NCBI RefSeq assembly: GCF_000012545.1
Contig: NC_007681.1
Coordinates: 1,500,001 to 1,532,000 of the forward strand
Direction of reading: 5' to 3'
DNA length: 32,000 bases
Origin: Methanosphaera stadtmanae DSM 3091
GTDB taxonomy: Archaea; Methanobacteriota; Methanobacteria; Methanobacteriales; Methanobacteriaceae
A model generated the notes under the pieces. The model did not search any database. It was given only the letters and a program-made list of their open reading frames with translations, and was not told where the DNA came from. Shown here one piece after another: positions 29,359-31,082 of the stretch; the first letter of the stretch is position 1; the number at the start of each line of letters is the position of its first letter. The position numbers and the translations under genes were made by a program.

Positions 29359-29903
29359 AACGGAAAAAAAGATATGGACGACCTCATAAAACACTAAAAA
29401 CTGACATTAAAACCAGAAAGCCAAAGAAAAAAGAAGAAAAAACAGAAGAAACTCCAGTAAAAACAAAAACAACCAAAACTCCCAAAATAAAAGAAAAAAC
29501 AGAGAAACCTAAAAAAAGAGGACCAGGAAGACCAAGAAAAACCAATAAAACAGAAGATAAAATAGAAGTAGAAGATACAAGTAAACATACCACTACAATT
29601 ATTGAAAAACAAGAACCACCAAAAAAAAGAGGACCAGGAAGACCAAGAAAAACTAAAAAAACAGAAGACAAACCAAAAGACAAACCAAAAAAAAGAGGAC
29701 CAGGAAGACCAAGAAAAACCAAGAAAACAGAAGACAAACCAAGAAAAAGAGGACCAGGAAGACCAAGAAAAACCAATAAAACAGAAGACAAACCAAGAAA
29801 AAGAGGACCAGGAAGACCAAGAAAAACTAAGAAAACAGAAGACAAACCAAAAGACAAACCAAAAAAAGAAAAAACCAAACAACCAAATCCATTACTTGAA
29901 ATT
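29325..29903 (+). other. Stop-free 193-codon stretch in the tfb reading frame, encoding an AT-hook array; translation status unresolved (no in-frame ATG/GTG/TTG)
   Basis: My manual translation of the frame with codon starts divisible by 3 is bounded upstream by TAA at 29322-29324 and runs uninterrupted into ATG 29904. See findings. Confidence 0.5.
29511..29867 (+). repeat. Near-perfect tandem coding repeats (54- and 66-nt units) containing aaaagaggaccaggaagaccaagaaaa
   Basis: The identical 27-nt core occurs at 29514, 29625, 29691, 29745 and 29799. All spacings (111, 66, 54, 54 nt) are multiples of 3. Confidence 0.9.
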
Positions 29904-31082
29904 ATGGATAATTTCAAAGATGACAAAAATACAGACACTGATAACGCCACAGATCACGAATTAAATGACTTAATATTATCTGATCCTATGGAAGATGTAG
30001 GATTAATAACACCAGAAGATTCAGATATTGAATTAATGTCAAATTCTGATTTAGATGTTGAAGAAATTATAAAAATAGATACAACAGACTCTGAAGAACT
30101 AGAACATGAATTAGAAAAAAGCAACGGCATAAGTGAAAAAGAACAAATGAAAGAAGACGTTGCTGAAATGGAGAAAAAAGAAACTAAATGTCCAGAATGT
30201 GGTTCTACAAAATTAATAAATGATCATGAACGTGGAGAAGTTGTTTGTGGAGCATGTGGTCTTGTAATAGATGATAACATAGTGGATATGGGTCCTGAAT
30301 GGAGAGCTTTTGACCATGAACAAAGAGATAAAAGAACAAGAGTAGGAGCACCTATCACATACACAATTCACGATAAAGGTTTATCCACCATGATTGATTG
30401 GCGTAACAAAGACATCTATGGAAGAGATATACCTGCAAGAAACAGAGCTCAATGGTACAGACTAAGAAAATGGCAGAGAAAAATCAGAATCAGTGGTGCT
30501 ACAGAAAGAAACCTTGCATTTGCATTAAGTGAACTTGATAGAGATTCTTCAAGATTAGGTCTTCCAAGATCTGTACGTGAATCAGCATCAGTTGTATATA
30601 GAAATGCTGTTGAAAATAAACTCATACGTGGAAGAAGTATTGAAGGAGTTGTAGCAGCTTCATTATATGCTGCATGTAGAAGATGTAAAGTTCCAAGAAC
30701 ACTTGATGAAATAGCTGATGTATCTCGTGTAAGTAAGAAAGAAGTTGGTAGAACATACAGATTCCTTACAAGAGAGTTACATATTAGATTACCACCAACA
30801 TCCCCTATTGATTATGTCCCTAGATTTGCTAGTGAATTAAATCTATCAGGTGTTGTTCAGTCTAAAGCTATTGAAATTATTAATCAAGCAATGGATAATG
30901 GTCTTACAAGTGGAAGAGGACCTACTGGTGTTGCAGCTGCTGCATTATACATTGCAAGTGTGTTACTTGGTGAACGTAAAACACAACGTGATGTTGCAGA
31001 TATTGCTGGTGTAACAGAAGTAACAATCAGAAACAGATACAAAGAATTAACAGAACAATTAGATATGGGTGTGAATTTATAA
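29904..31082 (+). CDS. tfb: Transcription initiation factor TFB (TFIIB homologue) with a long acidic N-terminal extension; the ORF may extend further 5'
   Basis: Zn ribbon CPECGS...VCGACGLV starts at 30189. Two cyclin-fold repeats and an HTH ([20 protein letters not shown]) are present. A canonical-length TFB (~304 aa) would start at ATG 30168. The first in-frame ATG is 29904. Neither ATG has a GGAGG-type SD. Confidence 0.9.

Follow-up and report, generated by a model that had tools for sequence, protein, structure and literature searches.

A 32,000-nt stretch of DNA from Methanosphaera stadtmanae DSM 3091 (the window, with a G+C content of 27.1 %, in whose coordinates all positions are given) carries on its forward strand gar1 and, immediately behind it, the gene for the general transcription factor TFB (tfb), the archaeal counterpart of TFIIB and a protein central to every promoter complex. 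gar1 (29074-29358), which lies in the +1 frame relative to tfb, encodes a 94-residue subunit of the H/ACA ribonucleoprotein that is identical to ABC57736.1 of M. stadtmanae. This product matches Pfam PF04410 over residues 9-82 (E = 2.4e-14), and the NCBIfam Gar1 models span residues 8-91 with a best score of 73.7 bits, below their curated cut-offs of 103-156 bits; because the family models cover nearly the whole protein, we judge Gar1 to be complete. The 3' end of gar1 overlaps the Shine-Dalgarno (SD) sequence and the start of a long tfb open reading frame (ORF), the overlap amounting to 16 nt. The tfb frame is free of stops from 29325 to 31082, between TAA 29322-29324 and TAA 31080-31082, and encodes in order six hooks with a Gly-Arg-Pro (GRP) core, an 88-residue acidic tract and a complete TFB; counted from ACG 29343, the long form comprises 579 codons to the stop. 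We propose that positions 29343-31082 constitute one gene for a long TFB isoform whose arm of AT-hooks and acidic residues would act as a tether to A/T-rich DNA, a reading to which we assign a probability of about 0.6.

The arm was compared across 14 loci, namely the window and 13 Methanosphaera-like loci (L001-L013) recovered by a scan of one genome per species. The basic module opens with hook 1 (29361-29390), which lies downstream of the gar1 stop and has a positional orthologue in 14/14 loci (KKRLGRPRK, KRKYGRPRK and similar). A variable spacer rich in Lys, Thr and Glu follows (29391-29513), and between species its length and sequence differ by whole codons only. Beyond hook 2 (KRGPGRPRK, 29514-29540), a block at 29583-29651 that joins KHTTTI(I/L)EKQEPP to hook 3 (again KRGPGRPRK) is near-invariant in 12/14 loci, with codons that vary synonymously. 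Hooks 4-6 (29691-29717, 29745-29771 and 29799-29825) belong to a tandem array with a 54-nt period at 29670-29852 (Tandem Repeats Finder; 3.4 copies, 94 % match), so that recent duplication, and not independent conservation, accounts for the identical copies in this genome. The original prediction, made from these letters, had listed five identical KRGPGRPRK motifs (hooks 2-6, with the third at 29625-29651), a degenerate RYGRPHK at 29370-29390, a hook core with 11/21 G+C, and a frame open backwards from ATG 29904 to TAA 29322-29324, all on a strand with just three T between 29605 and 29887 (at 29654, 29777 and 29828); each of these particulars is exact, including the identity of the five 27-nt copies. 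A GRP core flanked by Lys or Arg, the definition of an AT-hook, occurs six times in the window and four to seven times in each of the 13 orthologues.

The transition from basic to acidic sequence is itself conserved. A boundary motif (29880-29924) spans the internal ATG 29904 and is preserved in 10/14 loci, residues 5' of the ATG included; QPNPLLEI, directly upstream of this ATG, is conserved as protein, and the Met codon of ATG 29904 is ATA in L012 and missing in L013. The acidic tract (29904-30134, net charge about -23) measures 75-83 residues with a net charge of -17 to -28 in 14/14 loci, and the Asp/Glu-rich run of ~88 residues initially seen at 29904-30167 is borne out by 31 Asp/Glu versus 6 Lys/Arg in 88 residues. 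Its counterpart, the basic module, has a net charge of +29 to +54 across all loci, and the M. stadtmanae protein passes from +50 over 181 residues to -23 over the next 82.

Downstream of the arm all features of the TFB family are present, namely a C4 zinc ribbon, two TFIIB repeats and a match to the full-length archaeal TFB model. The zinc ribbon, or B-ribbon, occupies 30186-30311 (Pfam PF08271, E = 3e-20), the B-reader/linker and two cyclin-fold repeats occupy 30312-31082 including the stop codon (PF00382 in two stretches, E = 2.7e-48), and NCBIfam PRK00423 scores 541.8 bits versus a cut-off of 384, with model positions 4-311 of 312 covered. This last match begins at nt 30153, which points to ATG 30147 or ATG 30168 as the start of a canonical TFB. 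Both alternative ATGs lie in a short predicted helix just before the ribbon (30135-30170, residues 264-275 of the model), a region whose motif is common to Methanobacterium TFBs. The helix is the one element that AlphaFold2, run on a shallow 7-sequence alignment, placed ahead of the ribbon; residues 1-261 received a predicted local distance difference test score (pLDDT) below 50, which is consistent with a disordered arm, and no docking of the acidic tract was predicted. Pfam and NCBIfam scans of the extension alone matched no family, a PDB sequence search of the extension returned a chance match at E = 1.3 only, and Rfam identified no RNA family in 28500-31300.

Evidence that the arm is coding is suggestive from the window alone and decisive from the comparison of loci. 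Mononucleotide shuffling of 29325-29903 leaves frame 0 free of stops in 0.06 % of cases, and the hook region has a coding-like G+C fraction of 0.30-0.355 where the flanking intergenic DNA has 0.12-0.20. One layout recurs in all 13 related loci, with hook 1 near the N-terminus, then the variable spacer and hook 2, hook 3 with the KHTTTI(I/L)EKQEPP that leads into it, additional hooks, and finally boundary motif and acidic tract; ahead of the TFB ribbon their reading frame runs for 259-339 codons without a stop. Between start codon and ribbon (777-1017 nt), frame 0 contains 0 stops in 14/14 loci, while the other two sense frames contain 8-23 and 15-58. In the comparison that the original prediction had proposed as a check, the hook units are kept in the tfb frame with synonymous variation at orthologous gar1-tfb loci, in 13/13 Methanosphaera-like loci and in six further M. 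stadtmanae strains, all of which read from the hooks through the acidic tract into TFB without a stop. Loss of the repeat, a shift to another frame or codons free of constraint at such loci, named beforehand as grounds for rejection, were not found within the genus.

Codon usage and substitution patterns extend this picture. The hook cores are written with Gly as GGA, GGT, GGC or GGG, Pro as CCA, CCT, CCG or CCC, and Arg as AGA, AGG, CGT or CGA, and among the lineages whose long ORF begins at ACG (see below) the changes in hook 1 are mostly synonymous. Pairwise ratios of nonsynonymous to synonymous substitution rates (dN/dS), at a near-saturated dS of 0.5-2, are 0.14-0.71 for the hook module, 0.09-0.38 for the acidic tract in most pairs with 0.77-0.92 in two pairs involving the divergent L013, and 0.01-0.06 for the TFB core. 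Because the spacers cannot be aligned reliably, the count was repeated on 46 codons whose positional orthology is unambiguous (those of hook 1, of the boundary block and of the block from KHTTT to hook 3), for which pN/pS is 0.14 in ATG-type and 0.28 in ACG-type lineages at a pS of about 0.5-0.6. Within the basic module, conservation is strongest at the GRP tripeptides, and the spacers turn over freely. The substitution counts indicate that the arm is under purifying selection as a protein in the tfb frame, with the hooks and a few linear motifs constrained and the linkers free; constrained motifs joined by free linkers are the usual pattern of a disordered arm. At the loci compared, the arm is coding sequence, is fused to TFB and is under purifying selection, and we are highly confident that the hook and acidic module is coding and part of TFB across the genus.

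The start of the long ORF takes two forms. Eight lineages (L002-L006, L008, L010, L011) have an ATG 5-7 nt after GGAGG, giving ORFs of 581-636 residues, and six (the window, L001, L007, L009, L012 and L013) have ACG at the homologous codon, 8 nt after AGGAGG. A GGAGG upstream of the ATG or ACG codon is conserved in 14/14 loci. The AGGAGG of the window (29329-29334) is formed by the gar1 Arg-Arg codons AGG AGG, provides a 6-nt match to the anti-SD sequence and is among the best SD matches in the window; the proposed near-cognate start ACG (29343-29345), 8 nt farther on, is the exact positional homologue of the ATG start in the eight related loci. For 6/8 ATG lineages the exact long products have already been called as public proteins, one of them under the name TFIIB, and a further long form, P0104 (617 residues), is a representative in a 50 %-identity library. 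Word-index protein searches missed these long orthologues, which were found by exact look-up of the translated loci.

The tfb frame of M. stadtmanae has no ATG, GTG or TTG between 29325 and ATG 29904, and no SD sequence precedes ATG 29904 or the other internal ATGs. Hook 1 lies past the gar1 stop and is conserved in the ACG lineages, which places initiation between 29325 and 29360, and within that interval ACG is the only conserved near-cognate codon at SD distance. ACG accounts for 1.6 % of Thr codons in the window, and the overlapping gar1 codons AGG and CGG account for 6.6 % and 1.2 % of Arg codons. The SD sequence and the ACG are both kept in the six further M. stadtmanae strains. The ACG is also kept in L009, where gar1 ends (ATG-TAA) before it, so gar1 coding cannot hold the codon there. 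The arrangement of these signals suggests that the long isoform is most likely made from ACG at reduced efficiency, and its production in M. stadtmanae is, in our estimation, probable. Termination-reinitiation coupled to the gar1 stop, 13 nt downstream of the ACG, is an alternative route to the same product. A crude scan of 29343-31097 found neither a TATA-like site (at most one mismatch) nor a run of five or more T; an mRNA that carries the TFB core therefore most likely carries the hooks too, and gar1 and tfb are most likely transcribed as one unit.

Existing annotation reflects this start codon. In all six M. stadtmanae assemblies inspected a protein of 392 residues is called from ATG 29904, and it is the only form called because the codon at the start position of the long ORF is ACG and not ATG. 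Gene callers choose a downstream GTG in other ACG lineages, giving P0100 (529 residues) and P0101 (494 residues), and NCBI annotates 311 residues from the canonical start in the relative Methanosphaera sp. ISO3-F5. The gar1 side of the overlap varies as well. In seven lineages (L002-L006, L008, L011) an indel near the 3' end of gar1 has placed it in the +2 frame relative to tfb, and Gar1 there has a different, longer basic tail ending in RRKRHGRNSKTKKTSR at the stop, which is read from DNA that also encodes part of the TFB arm, with an overlap of about 45 nt versus 16 nt in M. stadtmanae.

Within M. stadtmanae, strains represented in human gut metagenomes (L081-L086) carry between 3 and 6 GRP hooks, always in frame, and also differ in the number of KDKP units, counts that collapse of repeats during assembly may affect. 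Since the 12- and 54-nt units are multiples of 3, such copy-number change is not independent evidence of coding; all seven M. stadtmanae genomes are free of stops and frameshifts in the arm. Outside the genus, none of 64 Methanobacterium loci has hooks, and the extension before the ribbon is 23-44 residues long and ends in a shared SEKEQMKQDVSEIEK motif. The original prediction had ordinary TFBs starting a few residues before the ribbon; since Methanobacterium already has this extension, the acidic tract is only partly new. Two Methanobrevibacter species sampled (27-29 % G+C) likewise lack hooks, with TFBs of 313-340 residues, and keep the RraA-gar1-tfb synteny with a gar1-tfb gap of 32 nt or an ATGA overlap. 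Among the taxa sampled (Methanobacterium and the two Methanobrevibacter species), the module is confined to the Methanosphaera lineage.

The start position has a wider history than the hooks. At the codon equivalent to 29343-29345, the Methanobacterium loci (L014-L080) have ATG in 27 cases, ACG in 22, TTG in 6, GTG in 2, GCG in 3, TCG in 2, AAG in 1 and TAG in 1, and these counts indicate that alternation between ATG and ACG at the tfb start is recurrent across Methanobacteriaceae. The codon lies within a basic Gar1 tail, K-[W/R]-G-R-R-K-R-K-K followed by the stop, in which NTG forces Trp (TGG) and ACG gives Arg (CGG), and the tfb frame is open from this codon to the ribbon in all of these loci. 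Where gar1 ends, four Methanobrevibacter loci (L088-L091) have GGAGG-N8-ACG in frame with tfb, with sequences beginning KEDETT in L088-L090 and KEEEAT in L091. Their annotated tfb ATG lies 3-20 codons past the ACG, with the frame open in between, and has no well-spaced SD; the Methanobrevibacter TFB start may be mis-annotated too.

How the long TFB might work can be outlined from what is understood of its parts. Ribosomes would load at the AGGAGG inside the last gar1 codons and start at ATG in eight Methanosphaera lineages and, presumably less efficiently, at ACG in M. stadtmanae and five others, where coupling to gar1 termination 13 nt downstream could assist. The product would consist of about 180 basic, disordered residues with six hooks, about 80 acidic residues, and then the ribbon, B-reader and cyclin core, and shorter isoforms from ATG 29904, 30147 or 30168 may coexist with it. 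GRP cores with basic flanks insert into the narrow minor groove of A/T tracts, and the hook array could bind such tracts multivalently, concentrating TFB on intergenic DNA of 12-20 % G+C and raising its dwell time there. The TFB ribbon docks on RNA polymerase and the cyclin core holds the TBP-DNA complex; promoter-flanking DNA on both sides is therefore within reach of an arm of ~190 residues joined immediately ahead of the ribbon, and an arm anchored in this way might hold that DNA in the pre-initiation complex. The acidic tract may temper or mask the basic arm in cis, as HMGA and HMGB tails do, or engage basic partners such as histones. We infer ACG initiation, DNA binding, the role of the acidic tract and the isoform ratios from this arrangement, and that the arm acts as a tether to A/T-rich DNA seems to us somewhat more likely than not.

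Several observations weigh against this proposal, and most of them concern either the start codon or the hooks. The long ORF of M. stadtmanae lacks a canonical start codon, and the literature searched documents no ACG initiation in archaea. In 5/6 ACG lineages the CG of the ACG also opens a gar1 Arg codon, and the hook-less Methanobrevibacter has the same GGAGG-N8-ACG, so conservation of the ACG may belong in part to gar1. In the hook module, dN/dS reaches 0.47-0.71 among ACG lineages and stays at 0.14-0.33 among ATG lineages, a difference that fits weaker expression or relaxed constraint. As to the hooks, the canonical RGRP core is absent from the window (0 RGRP, 5 PGRP and 1 YGRP), with RGRP found in the orthologues L013 (5), L001 (3), L010 (1) and L012 (1). 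The Pfam AT_hook model PF02178 gave no match at E <= 10, although the model has 13 residues and the filters and bias correction of HMMER suppress low-complexity matches. Extended AT-hooks reportedly prefer RNA, and the richness of the genome in A and T does not by itself explain the module, because the equally AT-rich Methanobrevibacter does without it.

Four other explanations were set against the tether. The hook region might be a non-coding, A-rich and T-poor repeat between gar1 and tfb that is open by composition, with tfb starting at 29904 or later. Stops indeed cannot occur where the strand is nearly devoid of T (29605-29887), recent duplication has left the five hook cores identical as DNA, and one antisense frame is also near-open in all loci. 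That antisense frame nevertheless has stops in 7/14 species (0-2 per species), and its openness follows from a sense strand without TTA, CTA or TCA codons; the antisense ORFs at 29384-29950 and 29394-29882 (reverse strand; 188 and 162 residues, rich in Leu, Phe, Gly and Ser) were accordingly rejected as genes and regarded as a compositional by-product. The exclusive openness of frame 0 in 14/14 loci against 8-58 stops in the other sense frames, the rarity of open shuffles, the coding-like G+C, the lack of an Rfam match, the synonymous variation of the hooks with pN/pS of 0.14-0.28 and the ATG with its SD in eight lineages all contradict a non-coding repeat. The hooks might instead belong to Gar1 through a frameshift or slippage near the gar1 stop, producing a Gar1-hook-TFB fusion or a basic-tailed Gar1 reminiscent of the Gly/Arg-rich domains of eukaryotic Gar1, a possibility raised by the overlap of gar1 with the beginning of the open frame and by A-runs in the vicinity. 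Gar1 is complete by its family models, however, and gar1 is in the +1 or +2 frame depending on the lineage, yet the SD and the ATG or ACG are always in the tfb frame. A shift at the slippery-looking A AAA AAT would terminate at once, since the frame-0 stop TAA 29322 follows it, no slippery heptamer occurs between 29325 and 29356, and gar1 stops before the ACG in L009. Non-coding repeat and Gar1 fusion are both effectively excluded. An arm that M. stadtmanae has stopped making, or now makes in trace amounts, so that the functional TFB begins at ATG 29904 or 30147/30168 and the hooks persist as an undecayed relic, accords with the missing ATG, GTG or TTG before 29904, with the 392-residue calls and the 311-residue annotation in ISO3-F5, with the higher hook-module dN/dS of ACG lineages and with the existence of a hook-less TFB paralogue that retains an acidic tract (P0102/L087). 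It is nonetheless improbable, since six ACG lineages separated by dS of 0.55-2 keep an intact frame, hook 1 and 5-7 hooks in all at a pN/pS of 0.28, and seven M. stadtmanae genomes show active in-frame copy-number change and neither stops nor frameshifts. The conservation of QPNPLLEI as protein, the lack of an SD at ATG 29904 together with its loss in L012 and L013, and the position of the sole strong SD before the ACG likewise oppose a relic.

The remaining alternative accepts translation and questions the target, in that the arm would bind RNA or act as a polycation/polyanion pair, in condensates or in contacts with histones or RNA polymerase, with no tether in the minor groove. The PGRP and YGRP forms of the M. 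stadtmanae hooks, the placement of the TFB N-terminus beside the ribbon and near the RNA exit channel of RNA polymerase, as established for TFIIB and TFB structures, and the low pLDDT of the arm (from the shallow alignment), consistent with disorder, could all be accommodated in this way, and the TFB homologue P0111 combines a basic and an acidic arm without GRP, as though the charge pattern mattered more than the hook. On the other side, the GRP tripeptides are what is most conserved amid freely changing spacers, and L013 and L001 carry the canonical hooks (K)RGRGRPKK and KRKRGRPRK. GRP with basic flanks is, in the statement of PMC2919716 that cites Aravind and Landsman 1998, the defining minor-groove motif. 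We therefore regard RNA binding or a pure charge effect as unlikely, if less so than a relic, and retain the A/T-DNA tether as the preferred reading. A more specific version of that tether is tentative. There would be two TFB isoforms, an HMGA-style long form serving AT-rich, histone-bound promoters and a short canonical form, with their ratio set translationally by the ACG (versus ATG) start inside the 3' end of gar1. If this two-isoform arrangement is true, it would represent the first general transcription factor bearing AT-hooks, together with natural, conserved initiation at a codon other than AUG, GUG or UUG in an archaeon.

Comparison with known systems places the protein among TFBs with an unusual addition. 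Its C-terminal 304-311 residues are a complete, highly conserved TFB that shares 90-99 % of its residues with the TFBs of other Methanobacteriaceae, at a locus where gar1-tfb synteny is kept. Ordinary TFBs begin 5-45 residues before the ribbon, whereas about 280 extra N-terminal residues are present here, with a non-AUG start in M. stadtmanae. HMGA proteins are distinguished by several AT-hooks with a flanking highly acidic region and by intrinsic disorder (PMC2919716). The description of the arm as HMGA-like in the original prediction is apt in so far as it has hooks, a flanking acidic tract and a low pLDDT consistent with disorder, but the arm is not free-standing, and homology to HMGA is not demonstrated. 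KRGPGRPRK differs by one residue from hook 1 of human HMGA1, KRGRGRPRK, and a two-sequence comparison with HMGA1 aligned the 9-residue hook only, at E = 0.05; with similarity confined to so short a motif, common descent is unsupported. Unlike HMGA, the module is fused in frame to TFB in 14/14 species, measures about 270 residues versus about 100, and has PGRP in place of RGRP.

Two proteins, one prokaryotic and one eukaryotic, offer the closest functional parallels. Myxococcus xanthus CarD uses one domain to contact RNA polymerase and four AT-hooks, beside a highly acidic region, to contact DNA (PMC2919716, PMC4374960), and as of 2010 CarD and its orthologue were the only known prokaryotic proteins with HMGA-like domains (PMC2919716). 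Like CarD, the long TFB is a prokaryotic transcription protein that combines an RNA polymerase-binding part with hooks and an acidic region; unlike CarD, its host is an archaeal basal factor and the module is N-terminal, where the HMGA-like part of CarD is C-terminal. No match to the CarD_CdnL_TRCF domain (PF02559) was found in the long TFB. Schizosaccharomyces pombe Orc4, as summarised in the passage of PMC7574548 that cites Chuang and Kelly 1999, has an N-terminal AT-hook array that directs the factor to A/T-rich DNA. It resembles the long TFB in being a universally conserved initiation factor with a lineage-specific N-terminal hook array in an AT-rich intergenic landscape, and differs in being eukaryotic and in acting in replication rather than transcription. 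We know of no conserved acidic tract adjoining the Orc4 hooks. The resemblance to HMGA, CarD and Orc4 is one of analogy only.

What is new is a TFB with a conserved HMGA-style N-terminal module; the long ORFs of ATG-type species were already known as unnamed or 'TFIIB' predictions. The literature searched, with incomplete coverage, contains no paper that connects AT-hooks with TFB, with archaeal general factors or with Methanosphaera, and to our knowledge lineage-specific DNA-binding additions to TFB are essentially undescribed. A conserved arm of this kind would indicate that a basal factor has gained its own architectural, chromatin-type module, a role for which eukaryotes use separate HMGA proteins and Myxococcus uses CarD. 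It would also offer a handle on how promoters are found in a histone-packaged genome of 27 % G+C whose intergenic DNA has 12-20 % G+C. For annotation, the gene appears to be misdescribed in several relatives and in the type strain of M. stadtmanae, a major archaeon of the human gut, for which 392 residues are recorded versus a likely 579. The conserved ACG at the start position is a secondary and more speculative point, although the alternation of ATG and ACG at an SD-spaced codon across many Methanobacteriaceae makes it a candidate for natural near-cognate initiation in archaea.

Other TFB homologues vary in the same region. P0102 (403 residues, at 595-1806 of L087) is a divergent TFB with 68 % identity that has a Methanosphaera-type acidic tract beginning DEDSDIKLMSNSDLEVEE yet lacks hooks. 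Its gene, which has an SD and an ATG of its own, is not located beside gar1 and adjoins a weakly matching FHA-domain gene; the contig is 3.9 kb long with a G+C content of 29.6 %. P0102 may be a paralogue or reside on a mobile element, and a tRNA suspected beside L087 was not confirmed. P0111 (478 residues, encoded on a 9279-nt contig), an unrelated archaeal TFB, has a core that is 56 % identical, preceded by a 145-residue Lys-rich, histone-H1-like extension beginning KKAAKKEVTKKKAGGRKK and then by an acidic stretch before the ribbon. This TFB may have gained its basic-plus-acidic arm independently, which hints that such an arm before the ribbon arose more than once; HMGA-like and H1-like domains are reportedly interchangeable in bacterial CarD proteins, a situation that P0111 parallels. 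In the TFB homologues P0106 (789 residues) and P0107 (646 residues), about 330-480 residues are inserted behind RVGAP(M/I)T(F/Y)S(I/V)D, and the TFB sequence resumes just ahead of TIHDKGLST. Inteins occur in some archaeal TFIIB genes, and the insertion looks like an intein in the B-linker region.

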